Source: a phage. Taken from it: a DNA stretch of 64,000 nt. Position numbers and translations under genes: made by a program. Each line of letters starts with the position of its first letter. Position 1 is the stretch's first letter. The stretch lies in assembly GCA_010671865.1 (NCBI GenBank), contig GCA_010671865.1_4083.1. The stretch is one strand, 5' to 3'. Under the pieces are notes generated by a model. That model was not told the DNA's origin and did not search any database. It saw nothing but the letters and a program-made list of their open reading frames with translations. Shown piece after piece: positions 8,392 through 63,916 of the stretch.

Positions 8392-8813
8392 ACAATACCT
8401 CTCTTATGATGCAAACATTCTTGCATAATGTGTTGTATTTTTCGTAACAGAAACACATCCAGTTCATTAAAAACAGTACTGTACTGGAACATCTCTTCTT
8501 CCCCGTACTCAGTTAAATCATCAATTTCATCTCTAGAAACAGCTACAATATTAAAACCACGTGTACTACAATAACCCTTAGTAAGATAATATATGTACTT
8601 GTACTCTCCGTTGATATCTAAGAGATCTTGTGTGATACAGAAGCTTTTGGGTGACAGTTTATCATCAGGAACCATATGCCTTGCTTGTACATAGCAACGG
8701 ATACCATCACCTATACTATATGTAATAACTTCAAATTCAATCTTCATAGGTGAATATAATCCTTTTATATTGCTCAGGTGCAGTACTGAAACGTTTGATT
8801 GGATAATTATCAA
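8370..8813 (-). CDS. hypothetical protein, FQ-motif superfamily
   Basis: 147-aa ORF; motif EEEMFQYSTVFN; likely true start near 8747. Confidence 0.55.
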   Translation of the reverse strand: MIIIQSNVSVLHLSNIKGLYSPMKIEFEVITYSIGDGIRCYVQARHMVPDDKLSPKSFCITQDLLDINGEYKYIYYLTKGYCSTRGFNIVAVSRDEIDDLTEYGEEEMFQYSTVFNELDVFLLRKIQHIMQECLHHKRGIVCDVNLN

Positions 8814-9099
8814 AGATTCTTTTCATTTCTTTCTGGATTAAACATAAGAAATCAAAGTTACAATCGTACTTATTATCCCATACTAAACTTTCTTGGAATA
8901 ACTCATCCTCTTGCATTAGTGTAGTGTCAATTACATCTTCACGGACATAGCTATATACTTCATAGCTCTTGAAGCCATCTTCTGATAATTCTAATTCATA
9001 TGCAGCCATATCAAACATATCATCATGGTTTGTCTTCAAAGATATTAAACAAGTAACTAATTTTTTAGTTGTATAGTATGTAATACTTAATGTGTTCAT
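8737..9099 (-). CDS. hypothetical protein, FQ-motif superfamily
   Basis: 120-aa ORF; motif EDELFQESLVWD. Confidence 0.6.
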   Translation of the reverse strand: MNTLSITYYTTKKLVTCLISLKTNHDDMFDMAAYELELSEDGFKSYEVYSYVREDVIDTTLMQEDELFQESLVWDNKYDCNFDFLCLIQKEMKRIFDNYPIKRFSTAPEQYKRIIFTYED

Positions 9100-12212: not shown

Positions 12213-12661
12213 TCTATACCTTCTGGATCTTTACGAAGTTCTTCGAAATCCAAATAAAATCGAGGACAGTTAACACTCTTTAAGTACCACATAATAACTA
12301 ATGCTTCAAGTACTTCATCATCGTAAACAGTACTGTTTTGGAAGTAATACTCTTCACTATCCCACGGACCTTCCAGTACTTCATAATTCAAAATTAATGG
12401 TTTTTTGCGATTAATAAAACGAATGCTACCATTTTCAACATAACTAATAAATTCTGCATCTCTATTGTATTCAGAAAACGATATAGGACTATTGGAATTC
12501 AACCCAAGAATAACCCTTACACCAACGGAGTTATTATACATTTCATCCTTGTAGTAGTTGCCGTTCTCGGCTTTGTACACTTCTTTGAACTTTCCTGCCT
12601 TTATATCGTCAAAGTATCCATGTAGTTCTTTTGCTTTTTCAAGAGCACTTTGTAATGACAT
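12209..12661 (-). CDS. hypothetical protein, FQ-motif superfamily, MSL subfamily
   Basis: 150-aa ORF; N-term MSLQSALEKAKELHGY; motif WDSEEYYFQNSTVYD...IMWYLK. Confidence 0.65.
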   Translation of the reverse strand: MSLQSALEKAKELHGYFDDIKAGKFKEVYKAENGNYYKDEMYNNSVGVRVILGLNSNSPISFSEYNRDAEFISYVENGSIRFINRKKPLILNYEVLEGPWDSEEYYFQNSTVYDDEVLEALVIMWYLKSVNCPRFYLDFEELRKDPEGIE

Positions 12662-14038: not shown

Positions 14039-14530
14039 TCAACCCCTGTTAATACCGTTATCTACAGTTTTCTTTACGTATTTGTAATCGAAATAGAAGT
14101 TCCCAGAACCAATACTTTTAAAGTACCACATAATTATAATAACATCAAGTACTTCATTATCATATACAGTACTTTGTTGGAAGTAATACTCTTCACTATC
14201 CCACGGACCTTCCAGTACTTCACTCGGAATTATAATGTCATTGGAATCGCTGTCAGTACTGTTGATGGTATCTGTATCATTAATATAGACCATGTACTCA
14301 TTATGCATATTAATGAAGCATTCATAATCATTAGGGTCGGTATCTAGTATGCACGTTTCTGTATCCAGTACACACGTTTCTGTATCTGAGTAGTCATTAT
14401 TAAGGAGGTTATCCGGCACATAATATTGAGTACTTGTGTCTTTGAAAACACCGTAAACTGAACCTTCTTTTACCATATTCATGTACTCATGAATCTTCTT
14501 TGCTTTTTCCAATGAACTCTGTAATGTCAT
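14039..14530 (-). CDS. hypothetical protein, FQ-motif superfamily, MSL subfamily
   Basis: 163-aa ORF; N-term MTLQSSLEKAKKIHEY; motif WDSEEYYFQQSTVYD; internal TETC[VI]LDT tandem repeat. Confidence 0.65.
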   Translation of the reverse strand: MTLQSSLEKAKKIHEYMNMVKEGSVYGVFKDTSTQYYVPDNLLNNDYSDTETCVLDTETCILDTDPNDYECFINMHNEYMVYINDTDTINSTDSDSNDIIIPSEVLEGPWDSEEYYFQQSTVYDNEVLDVIIIMWYFKSIGSGNFYFDYKYVKKTVDNGINRG

Positions 14531-14539
14531 TTTATAATC

Positions 14540-14899
14540 TCATATATTGAAATAATAATTATTCGTTCTTGATGGGGATGGATTAAATACGTTTTCTTTT
14601 TCAAATCTCTTCATTTCATTTTGCAAAGAAACCATTTCTTCAAATGTACAGGAGTACTTATTCTTATCAAACACTAATGCTTCCTGAAATAGTTCACCAT
14701 CGTCCAGTACTGTATAATCTATAAGACTCTCAGATTCATAGTCATAGTCGTCATGTGATACATGAATAAATTTAAAACAAGAATCTTTGTAATGCATATA
14801 TAAACTCAACTCATGTTCCGAGTCGCCCTTAATAAGATTACAGCACAAGTCCCATCCTTTAGGTAACTTATAATAGTACATAGAATAATCATATGTCAT
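14540..14899 (-). CDS. hypothetical protein, FQ-motif superfamily (LFQE-LVFDK subfamily)
   Basis: 119-aa ORF; motif DGELFQEALVFDKNKYSCTFEEMVSLQ. Confidence 0.65.
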   Translation of the reverse strand: MTYDYSMYYYKLPKGWDLCCNLIKGDSEHELSLYMHYKDSCFKFIHVSHDDYDYESESLIDYTVLDDGELFQEALVFDKNKYSCTFEEMVSLQNEMKRFEKENVFNPSPSRTNNYYFNI

Positions 14900-15252
14900 T
14901 CTTGAATTCCTAAATTGAATTTGTATTCTTGATTAATACTTGCATTGGGTTTATGCAAAGCAGCATACTCTTTCATTTCATTTTGTATTGCAATAACTTC
15001 TTCAAATGTACACAAGTACTTCTTATCAAATACTAATGATTCTTGGAATAGTTCTGCGGTATCCATTAATGTATAGTCCGGCATATCTTGGTGTGGATAC
15101 TGTAATGAACTGTAATCAATGAATGTAAATTTACCCTGAGTGTAATGAATATACTCATTTGCACTGTGCATTAAATCACCTTTGTTTAAATTACAAAAGT
15201 ACTGATAACTGTGCTTGAAAGTATGTACTGATATTAAAAAATCAAATTCCAT
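14896..15252 (-). CDS. hypothetical protein, FQ-motif superfamily (LFQE-LVFDK subfamily)
   Basis: 118-aa ORF; motif TAELFQESLVFDKKYLCTFEEVIAIQ. Confidence 0.65.
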   Translation of the reverse strand: MEFDFLISVHTFKHSYQYFCNLNKGDLMHSANEYIHYTQGKFTFIDYSSLQYPHQDMPDYTLMDTAELFQESLVFDKKYLCTFEEVIAIQNEMKEYAALHKPNASINQEYKFNLGIQE

Positions 15253-15623
15253 CAGTACTCAACCTCTACATAAATAGATTCAGGAAACTTAGTCATATAA
15301 TCTTCTGGATAGTTCTGCATTACTTTGATCATTTCTGCCTGTGTAGCACGGACGTATTCAATTGGTGCTCCTGGTAAATTCCAGACAGTACTTTCCTGAA
15401 AGAATTCCTCTTCTGACAGTACTGTCAGATTTACAAAATCATTACGGTAATTTTTTGAATCATCATATGTGAAGATTTTAAAAGACCCATTTTCATATAG
15501 TACAAGAACAAAATGGGAGAATTTTTGTAATGCACCACCAAGGCTTTCCACGACCGCATGATTCAGTGTACAGATGACCTCTCTTTTCCTCATACCGAAT
15601 TGAATTCTAATTTCTTTTTTCAT
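15252..15623 (-). CDS. hypothetical protein, FQ-motif superfamily
   Basis: 123-aa ORF; motif EEEFFQESTVWN. Confidence 0.6.
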   Translation of the reverse strand: MKKEIRIQFGMRKREVICTLNHAVVESLGGALQKFSHFVLVLYENGSFKIFTYDDSKNYRNDFVNLTVLSEEEFFQESTVWNLPGAPIEYVRATQAEMIKVMQNYPEDYMTKFPESIYVEVEY

Positions 15624-15781
15624 AAAATCTCCTTCAGATTAGTACTGAATTTGTACAGAATATTAGAACTGTATACAGCCTCTGTATCTGTATCCATAAT
15701 CAAATCACCTTTGTTTAAATTACAAAAGTACTGATAACTGTGCTTAAAAGAATGTACTGATATTAAAAAATCAAATTCCAT
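15620..15781 (-). pseudogene. truncated duplicate of the 5' end of gene 14896..15252
   Basis: ~85 bp at 15697-15781 nearly identical to 15170-15255, including start codon and ATGA junction; encodes MEFDFLISVHSFKHSYQYFCNLNKGDL then diverges to a stop. Confidence 0.55.
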
Positions 15782-16158
15782 CACACTTCCCCTAGATTGA
15801 AATGATTACAAAAATCATCTTCACCAGTACTGCACCAGATATCTATACATTCCCTGTGAATACATTTAATTCTACGCTGTAATTCAATCATCTCTTCTAA
15901 TGTACAGATGTACTTCTTATCAAATACTAATGCCGCCTGAAACAGTGCAGCATCATCAAGTACTGTATAGTCCAACATCTCGGTTGCTTTACCCCTAAAC
16001 CCAGTACTAAAATCCATCAAATAAAAGTCAGCATTCCAGTACTTTAAAATCTTGTCCCTAGCGTAGTTTAAATCACCCTTGTATAAGTTAGAGTGCGTAA
16101 CTAACTCACCAGTGTACATCCATGTCCTTGCACAAAATTCATTATATTTTATTTCCAT
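15781..16158 (-). CDS. hypothetical protein, FQ-motif superfamily (LFQE-LVFDK subfamily)
   Basis: track ORF 15781..16299 trimmed to internal Met (MEIKYNEF) matching paralog length; motif DAALFQAALVFDKKYICTLEEMIELQ. Confidence 0.5.
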   Translation of the reverse strand: MEIKYNEFCARTWMYTGELVTHSNLYKGDLNYARDKILKYWNADFYLMDFSTGFRGKATEMLDYTVLDDAALFQAALVFDKKYICTLEEMIELQRRIKCIHRECIDIWCSTGEDDFCNHFNLGEV

Positions 16159-16355
16159 CTTAATCTCTACTATAATTAATAAGGTAAACTCCAATATAAG
16201 GAGAACGTTCGGCGGCGGGGTATTTTTTGTTTCAAGAAACATGAACTGTACTCTGAAAAACACAATATAAAACTTTATATTAAACATATACCTTAGCATG
16301 TTTTTCAGCGGAAATTTTTTTGACCCCCCCTGCGGCCTGTCAAAATGAAACGTCT

Positions 16356-16580
16356 CTATTTATTCAGCCTAGAAACCTTGATTTCTTCAATCCTTTTCAT
16401 TGCACAAAGCCTTCGACTCGTCCTCTCGTATATATTCAATACTCGCTGTAATGCATTATCTGTATTATCTGCAACTGCAATCTGAACCAAATATGTATCC
16501 TTCAAAATAGAATCCATCATGAATTCAAAACCTTTCACACTAAAGCAATATGCCACTTCCGGCTCTTCAAACGTAATCAT
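16356..16580 (-). CDS. hypothetical protein
   Basis: 74-aa ORF; no family motif. Confidence 0.45.
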   Translation of the reverse strand: MITFEEPEVAYCFSVKGFEFMMDSILKDTYLVQIAVADNTDNALQRVLNIYERTSRRLCAMKRIEEIKVSRLNK

Positions 16581-16770
16581 AATTCCAATCCCCTATTCCC
16601 TCTAACCTTCTAAGATATCTTGCGTAAATTATTTCGAAATATCTGTGCAACGAAATTACGGATTGCTCATAATCATCATTCCTGTACATTGTGCATGTCA
16701 GAAAATCATTTAACCCAAAATCTAAACTGCACTTGAACTTCTCCTTAGCAACATCTCTAAAATTATTCAT
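16567..16770 (-). CDS. hypothetical protein
   Basis: 67-aa ORF overlapping 16356..16580 by 14 nt. Confidence 0.45.
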   Translation of the reverse strand: MNNFRDVAKEKFKCSLDFGLNDFLTCTMYRNDDYEQSVISLHRYFEIIYARYLRRLEGIGDWNYDYV

Positions 16771-42703: not shown

Positions 42704-42817
42704 TTTGTTTCTCCTGATAGTGGGGAGTACTATTTCTCCCCTTCATGTAAAACATTATACAGTACTGAAAACTAATTGCAAGTATTATTTTTTAGATTTA
42801 CGCAAACTTTCTACCAT

Positions 42818-42931: not shown

Positions 42932-43000
42932 TTCATATTCCTTAATTAGTGGGGAGTACTATTTCTCCCCTTCATGTAAAACATTATACAGTACTGAAAA

Positions 43001-43210
43001 CTAATTGCAAGTACTATTTGAAAGTAAATGCTCATACGCTGCATTAACTACATTTTCAATAACCGACTGTACAGAAAGATCCCCCACGTCCTGGCTATAG
43101 TAGAAATTGCTTACAGTGGTGTCATCGTATGCAAATACTTTACCAGGTACGGCATCAATCACATACATATTAACCTTTAAGATGTCGATCTTATCCTGTA
43201 CAGTAAGCAT
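43001..43210 (-). CDS. hypothetical protein
   Basis: 69-aa ORF. Confidence 0.55.
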   Translation of the reverse strand: MLTVQDKIDILKVNMYVIDAVPGKVFAYDDTTVSNFYYSQDVGDLSVQSVIENVVNAAYEHLLSNSTCN

Positions 43211-47480: not shown

Positions 47481-47720
47481 TTACATTCCAACCATTGCAG
47501 CACGGATCGCAGTAGTGCTATACTTAAAGCCGTCCGGCGTTGTAGTAGTACCGTTGGCTTTTAATCTGCGGTACATGCATTCCGCTGCAATATCTTTAGT
47601 TCTACTTTGTGCGATACAACTTTGTGCAAGCCGATACAATGACTCACCGTTATTAATCCATAAGGAAACATTCCAATGAGTTTTGTTTTTGTGCCCGTTG
47701 TAAGTTTTAGTACTAGCCAT
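47481..47720 (-). CDS. hypothetical protein (mosaic paralog of 49523..49762)
   Basis: 79-aa ORF; conserved GHKNKTHWNVSLWINN and TPDGFKYSTTAIRAAMVGM termini, divergent centre. Confidence 0.6.
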   Translation of the reverse strand: MASTKTYNGHKNKTHWNVSLWINNGESLYRLAQSCIAQSRTKDIAAECMYRRLKANGTTTTPDGFKYSTTAIRAAMVGM

Positions 47721-47812
47721 TTTTTTTAATCCTCGTTTGAGCGGGGAACCATTCCCCGCCTCGATATAAAGTATTATACGCTTTTAAACTTAGTTTGCAA
47801 GTACTTTTTAAA

Positions 47813-48851: not shown

Positions 48852-49082
48852 TTATACTGCAATCGCGTCCAGGCTATAATAATAATAAGTGCCGTATTGG
48901 TGTACTTTATTACCTTTTATTTCAGTACTGAATGAATCCGAACGGTTTGCATATGATGTTAATTTAAAGTACTTTGATTTGCTGATACGTTGCCATACAC
49001 CGCAGATCCGCTGTAAGTAAGTAGTTTTATTCGTGGTAGTATCTTTTACGGTTTTAACTTCAGTCATATACATATTAGTCAT
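48852..49082 (-). CDS. hypothetical protein
   Basis: 76-aa ORF. Confidence 0.5.
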   Translation of the reverse strand: MTNMYMTEVKTVKDTTTNKTTYLQRICGVWQRISKSKYFKLTSYANRSDSFSTEIKGNKVHQYGTYYYYSLDAIAV

Positions 49083-49169
49083 TTTTATTACTCCAGGTTA
49101 TAGGCGGGAAGTGTTCCCGCTCTCGATGTAAAACATTATACGCCATTAAACATAGTTTGCAAGTACTTT

Positions 49170-49436
49170 TTATTCAAGTACTGCAATCTTTTTAGTACGG
49201 TACACGGTCACGCGGTTGCCCTTTCGGTCGAGCTTTATTTCTACCACTCGACGCGATACACTATCGGGACTTTTTAACGCCGCTAACCAGTACTGTAATG
49301 ATCTGGCGGTACTACGCTTTACAATGGCCCAACGTTCACCACTTGCCGATCCCGCTCCCATATCTTTAAACGTTGCCCCGTCCTGGCGTGCGGCGATCCG
49401 AGCTTGTTCACGCGTCGCAAAATACTTAATATTCAT
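49170..49436 (-). CDS. hypothetical protein (paralog of 37266..37661)
   Basis: track ORF trimmed to MNIKYFATREQ; shares FATREQARI...FKDMG...DRKGNRVTVY. Confidence 0.55.
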   Translation of the reverse strand: MNIKYFATREQARIAARQDGATFKDMGAGSASGERWAIVKRSTARSLQYWLAALKSPDSVSRRVVEIKLDRKGNRVTVYRTKKIAVLE

Positions 49437-61508: not shown

Positions 61509-62657
61509 ATGTTACCTTTTGTAAGAATGATGAATTATGGGAATATTGCCCCTGGTAAGGATAGGCGTTTTAAAATATATTCAAGTGATTCTATGTATCT
61601 TCATGATACTTATACTAATAAGTTGTATGCATCTTCTTCGACGAATTGGGGTACTGGTACAGGTGTAGCATCGAGTAAATTTATTCTTTGTGCGGAGAAT
61701 GTTAAACGAGTTCTATTGGAAGATAACAGTAGTAGGTGTCAATTGTATGAAGAGAAAGGTACTGGAAAAGTTTTTATCACTGGTAACACGAAGGCATTCA
61801 CTGGTGTAACTGATACAAAAACTTTGTGGACGGACTGTACTACGTGGATAACATCAGGTGGTATTAATGTTTCTGATATAAAATACATGAGTAGTTTTAA
61901 TGATATGAAGGTGAATTTGATAACAAACGATGGTACGTTGTATTGTTGTGGAGTTAACAATAACTCGAACCTATCATCATTTGGTGATGGTACAAACATT
62001 AATTCTTTTAACACATTCAAAAGGGTAGATACTATAACTTCGGTTAAAAAGGCAGTTGGTAACATATACCTAAAAGAAGATAATACTTTATGGGGTTGTG
62101 GTTTTAACTATTACTATCAGTTAGGTACAGGTAATCAAACTTCTATTACTGGGGTGACGATGATTGCTTCGGATGTTATAGATTTTGATGTAAGTTATCA
62201 AAGTACATTTTTTATTAAATCGGATAATAATTTGTACGCTTGTGGTAAACAGTTCGGTGCACAATACGGGAACGAATTTGGCACAGGTGGTACTTCTTCA
62301 TCTACCGATATACAATACAAAACTCCGACATTATTGAGTTCAGGAGTTTATACTCTATATACGTGTGTTAGTAACATGGCATCACATATAGCTAAAGGTG
62401 ATGAAGTTCTATACGCATCTGGGTCGAATGGATTTGGTCAATTAGGTGTTGGTAATAATATTAATCAGTACTCATATACTCCTTCGTATACTTCGTTTAA
62501 TAGTTCGTGTAATTTGGTACGCACTCCATCTGGTTCACTTATACTTACGGACACTGAGCAATTATATTATTGTGGGTATGCTATGGTAGTAATGGGGGGA
62601 ATTGCTGGACAAAACATTCTTAGTTATACAGAAGTTGATATGTCATTTATACAATGA
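61509..62657 (+). CDS. RCC1-like repeat (beta-propeller) protein, paralog 5
   Basis: 382-aa ORF; N-term MLPFVRMMNYGNIAPG. Confidence 0.65.
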   Translation: MLPFVRMMNYGNIAPGKDRRFKIYSSDSMYLHDTYTNKLYASSSTNWGTGTGVASSKFILCAENVKRVLLEDNSSRCQLYEEKGTGKVFITGNTKAFTGVTDTKTLWTDCTTWITSGGINVSDIKYMSSFNDMKVNLITNDGTLYCCGVNNNSNLSSFGDGTNINSFNTFKRVDTITSVKKAVGNIYLKEDNTLWGCGFNYYYQLGTGNQTSITGVTMIASDVIDFDVSYQSTFFIKSDNNLYACGKQFGAQYGNEFGTGGTSSSTDIQYKTPTLLSSGVYTLYTCVSNMASHIAKGDEVLYASGSNGFGQLGVGNNINQYSYTPSYTSFNSSCNLVRTPSGSLILTDTEQLYYCGYAMVVMGGIAGQNILSYTEVDMSFIQ

Positions 62658-62663
62658 TTTAAT

Positions 62664-62693
62664 GCCAGTACTTGATACTGGCTTTCTTATTTG
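62664..62693 (+). terminator. intrinsic terminator between RCC1-like paralogs
   Basis: GCCAGTActtgaTACTGGC hairpin then TTTCTTATTTG. Confidence 0.6.
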
Positions 62694-62728
62694 TATTAAA
62701 TATAGTATAATGAATAAAGGAGGAATTT

Positions 62729-63916
62729 ATGTTACCTTTTGCAAGAATGATGAATTATGGGAATATTGCCCCAGTACCACTTCAAATTAAGAAAATAATC
62801 CCAACTGATTTAGATGTTGTGGTTCTGTATACGGATGGTCAACTATATGCACGTGGGAATAATAGTTTTGGGAAATTCGGTAGAGGAAACAACACTGCAT
62901 TAAAATCATGGACATTAATTAGAGAAAACGTTAACGATTGCTGGCTTACACAAGGAACTTTATTAGTAAAAGACAATGACTCAAATTATTATTACTGTGG
63001 ATATGGTAGTCATATTGGTTTATCAACTAGTACTACTACGTTTTTAAGTTATAACCAATATATTCAAAATTTGTACACACAAAGTTCAAGTACTTCAATT
63101 AAACAGATGTATGGAGGTACTACGTGGTTTACTTTCTTAATGGACAATAATACAATATGGAGTACAGGGTGGAACAGTGCTAGACAATTCGCCGATGGAA
63201 CGGGAACTACTTATGAAATAACCGATGGTTCATTTGTAAAAGCGGTCACACCTAATGTTGATATTGCACAAATACAGTCAACAAATAACTGTGTATTGTT
63301 GTTTGATAAACAAAATAATTTATATATTGGTGGTGTTACATCCGGTATAAGTTCCGCGACTACATGGACTTCATATAATCAATATACTTTATATCAACCA
63401 AATACAACATACACAAAAACGTTACAATACACAGGATGCTCAACTGGTGCAGTAAGTGCTTTAGTTGAAAATCCAAATACAGGAGCACGTCAGTTCCTTG
63501 TCGGTGGGTTAGCTAATAATGGGGCATGGGGAAATAACACTACATCTAGCTCTGTTAATGGAGTTTTAGGAAATAACAGTACGACGTTACCACCCGGTAC
63601 TTTGTATTCAATTCATACTGGATACCCACCACAATCTAGTATACTAATTACGAGTACTGGTGTATATGCAACTGGTTTAAATGCCAGTAGTTATGCTGGT
63701 TCATTGGGTATTGGTACTAGTGCAACTGTTGGTAAGTTTACTGCATGTCCAATGCCTACACAAATAACATATTCTATGTATGATAAAATAAAAATATATA
63801 GAGGTTCATATCGTACATTTCTAACTGATATGAAAAATATATATTCAACCGGAACTTATGATGATGGTGGTCCTAGTACAACTAGATATGTACTAGATAC
63901 ACCCCGACAATTATAA
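62729..63916 (+). CDS. RCC1-like repeat (beta-propeller) protein, paralog 6
   Basis: 395-aa ORF; N-term MLPFARMMNYGNIAPV. Confidence 0.65.
   Translation: MLPFARMMNYGNIAPVPLQIKKIIPTDLDVVVLYTDGQLYARGNNSFGKFGRGNNTALKSWTLIRENVNDCWLTQGTLLVKDNDSNYYYCGYGSHIGLSTSTTTFLSYNQYIQNLYTQSSSTSIKQMYGGTTWFTFLMDNNTIWSTGWNSARQFADGTGTTYEITDGSFVKAVTPNVDIAQIQSTNNCVLLFDKQNNLYIGGVTSGISSATTWTSYNQYTLYQPNTTYTKTLQYTGCSTGAVSALVENPNTGARQFLVGGLANNGAWGNNTTSSSVNGVLGNNSTTLPPGTLYSIHTGYPPQSSILITSTGVYATGLNASSYAGSLGIGTSATVGKFTACPMPTQITYSMYDKIKIYRGSYRTFLTDMKNIYSTGTYDDGGPSTTRYVLDTPRQL

Follow-up and report, generated by a model that had tools for sequence, protein, structure and literature searches.

A Short Chimeric ORF in an Asteriusvirus Paralog Array as the Probable Scar of an Ectopic, Microhomology-Mediated Insertion

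Introduction

In a phage contig (GCA_010671865.1_4083.1), the beginning of a small gene is present twice, and the second copy opens a short ORF within a dense run of related genes. The locus raises the questions of how one gene start came to be duplicated and what the short ORF is. A sequence-only reading had taken it for the fossil of a duplication, i.e., a truncated copy of a gene start retained between two paralogs. Here, the locus is analyzed by comparison with related phage genomes and assembled contigs.

The Array and Its Gene Family

The window, i.e., the whole stretch of 64,000 nt analyzed here, derives from an Asteriusvirus jumbo coliphage of the 121Q/PBECO4/G17 type: over 7.5 kb it is 94–99% identical to 121Q, PBECO4, G17, slurp01, phAPEC6 and others, and BF17 is locally 99.9% identical to it. 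Small genes with overlapping stops and starts form an unbroken minus-strand run from 367 to about 25,550 (25552). At least 39 tandem ORFs of this array (about 100–215 aa) have in common an FQxS[LT][VIL] motif located 40–74 aa before the C-terminus. The PHROGs of the array genes (15629, 13866, 9317, 12674, 34600 and others) match each other mutually, and these cross-hits suggest that the array is one large paralog superfamily. This superfamily comprises the FQxS-motif paralogs of RaK2/Asteriusvirus jumbo phages, and its feature is a complete alpha+beta domain with the FQxS[LT][VIL] helix.

A Pfam scan of ten array proteins gave no match, and the PHROGs matched by array proteins are all families of unknown function. 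The AF2 model of gene A has a pLDDT of 87.3. A BFVD structure search with the model of an array member returned only uncharacterized proteins from phages of this group, Klebsiella phage RaK2 among them; informative structural neighbors were not found for this confidently modeled protein. Papers on the genus (UE-S1, Sharanji and a jumbo-phage review) mention neither the locus nor the array.

Two further observations concern the array itself. Two phrog_9317 paralogs share about 70% identity except in a stretch of 113 nt (12272–12383 and 14111–14222) with 88.5% identity, which may be a gene-conversion tract in the conserved C-terminal region. Upstream of gene C, the non-coding gap at 16160–16355 is unusually long for the array; it includes a 19-nt inverted repeat (16244–16262/16299–16317) and a minus-strand promoter-like site (TTGACA-N18-AAAAAT, 16343–16314), and a transcription unit may begin here.

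The locus is transcribed from the minus strand in the order gene C, short ORF, gene B, gene A, followed by a further phrog_15629 gene (14540..14899). Its parts are as follows, with the assignments to donor and target explained below.

15781..16158, minus strand: gene C, 125 aa from the ATG at 16158; phrog_15629, the family of A; upstream neighbor
15702..15783, minus strand: copy 2 of the duplicated target, TGATG plus codons 1–27 of A (repeat search, alignments)
15620..15781, minus strand: short chimeric ORF, 53 aa, ATG at 15781–15779, TGA at 15622–15620 (translations, alignments)
15624..15701, minus strand: tail of the short ORF, donor-derived, 3′ end of a 364-type gene (sequence comparison)
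15629..15634, minus strand: Shine-Dalgarno AAGGAG of gene B (read directly)
15252..15623, minus strand: gene B, 123 aa, phrog_13866, the putatively imported gene; 92.7% identical in amino acids to A4_365
15173..15254, minus strand: copy 1 of the duplicated target, functional 5′ end of A (repeat search, alignments)
14896..15252, minus strand: gene A, 118 aa, phrog_15629, intact; its start is the presumed insertion target

Genes A, B and C all have the domain of the superfamily with the FQxS helix 40–74 aa before the C-terminus. The TGA of C (15783–15781) overlaps the ATG of the short ORF by 1 nt (TGATG), the ATG of B overlaps the stop of the short ORF (ATGA), and the TGA of B overlaps the ATG of A (TGATG).

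A Repeat at the Start of Gene A

The two copies form a direct repeat of 85 nt with 96% identity (15170–15254 and 15699–15783) at a spacing of 529 nt. The near-identical copy of a gene start noticed in the sequence-only reading is real, although it had been placed about 2 nt off. The self-comparison proposed there was run as a whole-window self-BLAST (64 kb), in which no match other than this repeat reached 95% identity over 60 nt or more; the remaining paralog pairs of the array are 65–90% identical. The longest exact run in the repeat is 44 nt; when the 5-kb region was simulated 100 times with a first-order Markov model, the longest runs averaged 12.6 nt and reached at most 16.

The repeat consists of a TGATG stop/start overlap, which is a 1-nt overlap and not the ATGA junction first read there, followed by codons 1–27 of A. 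A truncated start of A is indeed kept together with its stop/start junction, but it spans 27 codons rather than about 28. The last 3 of the 85 nt match at two of three positions because the donor described below happens to read GAT where A has AAT, and the duplication that truly derives from A is 82 nt (15173–15254 and 15702–15783). The ORF at 15620–15781 continues from the copy, as had been described.

Repetitive arrays carry a general risk of misassembly, and the 529-bp unit could on that ground alone be ascribed to mis-assembled paralogous reads. In the comparison with related genomes, which had also been proposed, the arrangement recurs, with variants specific to lineages, in 11 phages that come from different countries and were sequenced independently, as well as in contigs of NCBI and ENA assemblies; the probability of an artefact is negligible.

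Composition of the Short ORF

The short ORF combines residues 1–27 of A with the 26 C-terminal residues of a 364-type protein (46 residues in 121Q) in one fusion. In relatives it is annotated as a hypothetical protein (e.g., G17_00559); in 121Q, where it is called PBI_121Q_366, it comprises 74 aa, and its 20 extra codons also match A4_364. The PHROG match of the chimeric ORF is confined to residues 2–40, which align with positions 1–39 of phrog_15629. The feature of the superfamily is absent from the chimeric ORF, whose 364 part begins after the FQ of the motif.

The parent of the tail, A4_364, has 192 aa and lies directly upstream of the B orthologue in phage A4; it is also found in a metagenomic contig (L023). 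Its C-terminus (...FQQDLIMDVDSAATYSSNVLCKEFQNSKILELLYIADCNILYKFCTHLKEIL) is the tail of the short ORF. At the DNA level, the 121Q tail is identical to A4 at 131 of 149 positions, and the 121Q tail together with B aligns to L023 without gaps over 514 nt at 94.6% identity. The gene order is 364→B→366 in A4 and likewise 364, B and a 366-type start in L023; these are the two of 15 cluster sequences for which the donor context was read, and this context is known only from the A4 lineage. The cluster of full-length 364 proteins (n = 15) spans 192–202 aa, and several members are encoded on phage-sized contigs of 352–359 kb. Like 39 other array genes, 364 holds the superfamily motif, here FQQDLI, about 50 aa from the C-terminus; this motif at the usual distance suggests that 364 is the intact parent and the short ORF the derived fusion. 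The Shine-Dalgarno AAGGAG of B is situated 5 nt upstream of its ATG, within the last codons of the tail (LKEIL), and is identical in the A4 and L023 donors. A piece of 364 would have travelled with B because the tail holds this signal.

Searches for further copies had narrow yields: tblastn of 364 against GenBank phages found just the full-length gene in A4 and the tail in 121Q, and IMG/VR scans with 364 and B found only 121Q itself and one distant B-like match. In the carrier genomes, no 364 gene was found elsewhere. The A4 array is collinear with that of the window, and the A4 364-B-366 locus maps to about 8–10 kb of the window, indicating that B at 15.3 kb is ectopic. At about 8–10 kb, the window carries a native phrog_13866 member that is very divergent (8737..9099), together with a 178-aa gene that is unrelated. 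The source of the tail and B could be either a co-infecting A4-like phage or an ancestral copy within the same genome.

This composition bears on an earlier model, in which A was duplicated in tandem together with its upstream junction (C→A′→A) and A′ was later truncated or overwritten. The copy does include the stop/start overlap, and an array of paralogs makes duplication plausible. What follows the copy, however, is not degraded A: it is 88–95% identical to the 3′ end of 364 and continues into B as in the donors. In the 19 loci of carriers that were read closely, namely those of the window, six relatives, three 121Q duplicates and nine contigs, no longer A′ was found, nor do match lengths and positions indicate one in the other carrier records. 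The longest version, that of 121Q, extends the 364 part and leaves the A part unextended. Moreover, TGATGGA is common to the B→A junction and the donor B→366 junction, and a single insertion explains both joints, whereas duplication followed by replacement takes two steps and needs additional events. Local tandem duplication is thus quite improbable. A pseudogene left by tandem duplication was also rejected, given that the tail is from 364 and that relatives contain no fuller copy of A. Of the fossil first proposed, the duplicated gene start and the past rearrangement stand, whereas a junction-carrying tandem paralog that was later truncated does not, the tail being 364 and not A. The description of the flanking genes as two paralogs fits C, which belongs to the same PHROG family as A; B belongs to a different one, 13866.

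The polarity might also be reversed, with the carrier arrangement ancestral, A4_364 built from the tail of the chimera plus another gene, and genomes with C→A derived by deletion. Recombination between the 82-nt repeats would restore C→A precisely, and a non-carrier with carrier-identical flanks exists (SD-15_S21). Against this, 364 is a complete protein throughout its length range with an FQxxL[IV] motif at the usual C-terminal distance, while the chimera begins in mid-motif and bears a partial copy of an A that lies intact next door, as expected of a derived sequence; the reversal is very improbable. A partial A fused to a partial 364 beside an intact A points to the carrier as the derived state, and we infer that the event proceeded from C→A to the carrier arrangement.

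Junctions and Proposed History

Both joints can be read to the nucleotide. At the left junction, A reads AAAGGTGATTT|AATGCAC, 364 reads CAACAGGATTT|GATTATGG, and the chimera reads AAAGGTGATTT|GATTATGG. The microhomology is 5–8 nt: GATTT, which forms the last 5 nt of copy 2 (15706–15702) and lengthens to GATTTGAT where the A allele is that of WPEC3 or Turkey3. Codon 27 of A is here joined to 364 halfway through its conserved FQQDL|IMD motif. The right junction is compared in three contexts:

Donor: GAGTAC TGATGGA TTTAG (stop of B, start of 366)
Non-carriers: GAAGNG TGATGGA ATTTG (stop of C, start of A; GAAGTG in E9.1, GAAGAG in PBECO4)
Window: GAGTAC TGATGGA ATTTG (stop of B, start of A)

The right microhomology is the 7 nt TGATGGA, located at 15254–15248 in the window and common to the donor B→366 and non-carrier C→A junctions. 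The stretch of 82 nt is duplicated because both joints lie 82 nt apart in A. At both joints, identity is limited to a few nt and the positions are non-homologous; the parents are identifiable and otherwise unrelated. On these alignments, the 82-nt duplication is the target duplication that flanks an insertion, and not what is left of a tandem pair of A and A′.

The short ORF is very likely the scar of one ectopic, microhomology-mediated insertion of foreign DNA into the start of A. Chimeric composition, donor arrangement, junctions, presence/absence polymorphism, uncoupling of cassette and flanks, and later deletions are read from the sequences, and the following course would connect them. The recipient would have been an Asteriusvirus ancestor in which A directly followed C, as it does today in PBECO4, E9.1 and SD-15_S21, and the donor would have had the arrangement 364→B→366, which A4 has about 6 kb further on in this array. 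About 447 nt would have been imported, comprising the last 139 nt of gene 364, with the Shine-Dalgarno sequence of B, and all of B. Re-entry into the recipient 82 nt upstream of the exit point would have doubled 82 nt of A.

Two template switches during replication would yield this pattern, and a staggered break-and-join or two successive illegitimate crossovers would give the same product; we infer template switching rather than break-and-join. All translation signals would have been kept in the process: the chimera would have taken over the old start of A, overlapping the stop of C; B would have retained its own ribosome-binding site; and A would now start in the former context of donor gene 366. 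Later, the 82-nt copies would serve as direct repeats, through which homologous recombination could lose the cassette or transfer it between genomes, and the chimeric remnant would decay by further slippage deletions and conversion patches.

Carriers, Non-carriers and Their Flanks

The start of gene A was matched in 35 records, corresponding to 33 distinct phages without two RefSeq duplicates. The 444-nt insert is found in 11 of these 33 phages, always singly and always in the same context, and A4 has the donor context. C→A was read directly in E9.1, PBECO4, JP4, SD-15_S21, WPEC3, TH47, CMSTMSU, ph0011 and Ec-M-J; E9.1 is exactly 529 bp shorter than the window at this locus. The tenth non-carrier locus read, that of UE-S1, is a C-A fusion: in L008 (1501–2229), a frame change reads through the overlap and joins C and A into one ORF of 242 aa (...NHFNLGERVMEFDF...).

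The junctions are identical in every carrier read (the window, six carrier relatives and eight contigs with a complete copy 2), suggesting a single origin. The flanks are variable: the cassette is found on at least three C alleles and at least three A alleles. Between Turkey3 and the window, the cassette is 99.8% identical (a single base differs in the tract that starts within copy 2 and ends with copy 1), whereas the flanks are 85% and 90% identical, the remainders of C and A differing by 15% and 10%. The Turkey3 flanks are 98% identical to those of the non-carriers TH47, CMSTMSU and WPEC3, and the window flanks are 100% identical to those of the non-carrier SD-15_S21. All four combinations of copy-2 allele and B allele are present. 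In contig L026, copy 2 carries the copy-1 alleles and has apparently been converted to them. This uncoupling of flanks from cassette suggests that the cassette has been transferred or lost repeatedly by homologous recombination whose exchange points fell within the repeats or beside them. Taken together, the comparison points to a single origin of the cassette followed by spread or loss through homologous recombination.

At two informative SNPs in the repeat, the single copy of the non-carriers is of either allele type. Because repeat recombination would regenerate C→A seamlessly, the non-carriers do not divide into primary and secondary ones; with both allele types among them, loss of the cassette and its never having been present look alike in E9.1 and SD-15_S21.

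Decay and Possible Function of the Short ORF

The tail differs in length between genomes. The window and most carriers have a 60-bp in-frame deletion at about 15662–15666, between imperfect direct repeats (TAAT[G/A]TTCTGT[G/A]CAA); the sequence is retained in 121Q and the donors. In contig L024, a frameshifting 26-nt deletion between TATCAGTAC repeats cuts the ORF to 11 aa, and B is 100% identical. In 121Q and CRJP21, copy 2 (2364–2448 in L003 for 121Q and 2304–2388 in L021 for CRJP21) contains a 25-nt patch that differs from every other copy by 12 substitutions and changes five residues, one of them to proline. In the window, the patch corresponds to 15727–15751. A source for it was found neither in the phage collection nor, with up to 6 mismatches allowed, in the fetched loci; gene conversion by an allele outside the sample or a complex mutation could have produced it.

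These variants are relevant to the possibility that the chimeric ORF is a functional new gene, e.g., a micro-protein or a leader that couples translation of C to that of B, kept by selection. The ORF is open in all genomes but one, with its ATG and its TGATG and ATGA overlaps, across the 11 phage genomes and most contigs; its known length changes are in frame but for one, the 60-bp deletion included; and annotators call it a CDS. However, the carriers are too little diverged for an open frame to mean much. The L024 frameshift leaves 11 codons beside an unchanged B, copy 2 of 121Q and CRJP21 carries the five amino-acid changes including the proline, 20 codons are dispensable as judged from 121Q and the window, and B has its own strong AAGGAG signal. 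In the AF2 model of A, residues 1–27 correspond to only the first two strands of a five-strand sheet, suggesting that the chimera, which lacks the other three, cannot form the family fold. A selected function is therefore unlikely. The variants and the model are consistent with a decaying, non-functional scar that would at most be a translated leader, and a leader-ORF role can still be envisaged.

Comparison With Known Systems

As judged from the aligned sequences, the locus is an example of a known process, phage mosaicism, in which illegitimate recombination is followed by homologous reassortment. Mosaicism by illegitimate or homeologous recombination is described in the Hendrix-type model and has been discussed experimentally (Martinsohn et al., 2008, PMC2327257). 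The likenesses are a novel joint at a few nt of identity, partly at gene boundaries, and a presence/absence polymorphism in near-identical genomes, as arises from homologous reassortment among co-infecting relatives. Unlike in usual mosaic joints, one joint here connects the interiors of two coding sequences at positions that are not homologous in the fold, and an in-frame chimeric ORF and an 82-nt target duplication have been left in addition. Both the recipient and the donor types still exist among sequenced relatives, which is uncommon for mosaic joints.

The promoter-early stem-loop (PeSL) cassettes of T4-type phages undergo modular shuffling that involves mini-circles (Arbiol et al., 2010, PMC2839356; PMC4122927). 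Repeats flanking single ORFans mediate their deletion and insertion and form mini-circles (PMC2839356), and reversible excision and insertion by the general recombination system of the phage is the proposed mechanism. As with PeSL, a single small non-essential gene is here bracketed by direct repeats of about 80–100 nt; some close relatives carry it and others lack it, and the exchange points fall within the repeats. Unlike PeSL, the repeats are coding, consist of the first 27 codons of A present twice, would have been made by the insertion itself, and are not a regulatory cassette. A promoter/terminator scan of 14400–16600 found 11 promoter-like sites where 10.8 were expected, none of them at the repeats, and one terminator-like site elsewhere; with no signal above chance at the locus, a PeSL-type unit or a moron was rejected.

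Sequences that resemble the PeSL cassettes of T4-type phages occur elsewhere in the window. Between 32000 and 51000, the minus strand carries at least 17 copies of a 73–100-nt intergenic cassette (e.g., 42718–42790, 42947–43019, 47711–47810 and 49073–49172), in which a sigma70-like promoter (TTGCAA/TTGACA-N17-TATAAT) precedes a GC-rich stem-loop (GGGGAGAA..TTCTCCCC), with small ORFs shortly downstream. On the plus strand, 56639–63916 encodes six tandem paralogs of about 376–433 aa that match RCC1-like repeats (beta-propeller; PF25390, PF00415 and PF13540), and these genes are separated by 90–120-nt repeats that are 88–94% identical to one another.

The microhomology template-switching models FoSTeS and MMBIR have been defined mainly in cellular genomes. 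The locus resembles their products in the ectopic insertion, the microhomology of 5–8 nt at both joints and the duplication of the sequence from exit to re-entry. A replication fork is part of these models; the joints described here are known as sequences, with which end-joining would be equally compatible. The later losses of 60 and 26 nt between direct repeats of 9–15 nt resemble slipped-strand deletions.

An extra gene in a conserved order, flanked by a direct target duplication, is also reminiscent of morons and transposon insertions. A transposon insertion was rejected: transposase, nuclease gene and terminal inverted repeats are absent, and the insert encodes only B and the 364 tail. In addition, 82 nt is far longer than the target duplications made by transposases. 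As for a moron, neither a promoter nor a terminator of its own was found; B has only its own Shine-Dalgarno sequence and is embedded in overlapping stop/start junctions.

Implications

The locus offers a natural example of gene gain in a multigene array, in which recipient, donor, product and stages of decay are all extant and the junctions are readable nucleotide by nucleotide. This expansion of the array, at least, would reflect the ectopic capture of a divergent family member, whether from elsewhere in the array or from a different phage, rather than local tandem duplication. As a consequence of ectopic capture, carriers would hold both the native phrog_13866 gene (8737..9099) and the imported B. 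Conserved stop/start overlaps such as TGATGGA can act as splice points that preserve translation signals, and the by-product duplication makes the new gene easy to lose or pass on. For annotation, G17_00559, PBI_121Q_366 and their homologues would be chimeric remnants for which a protein-family label is unwarranted.

By analogy, it is conceivable, though doubtful, that the 529-bp unit is a recombination-mobile cassette in which the 82-nt copies give B portable homology arms. If so, the cassette would hop by an excised mini-circle or by unequal crossover into any co-infecting Asteriusvirus with A, and would be lost as easily; it would then be the coding-sequence equivalent of PeSL cassettes, and huge paralog arrays would grow by ectopic capture of the divergent alleles of relatives, not by tandem duplication in situ. 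Current views of phage evolution are illustrated by this locus and unchanged by it.
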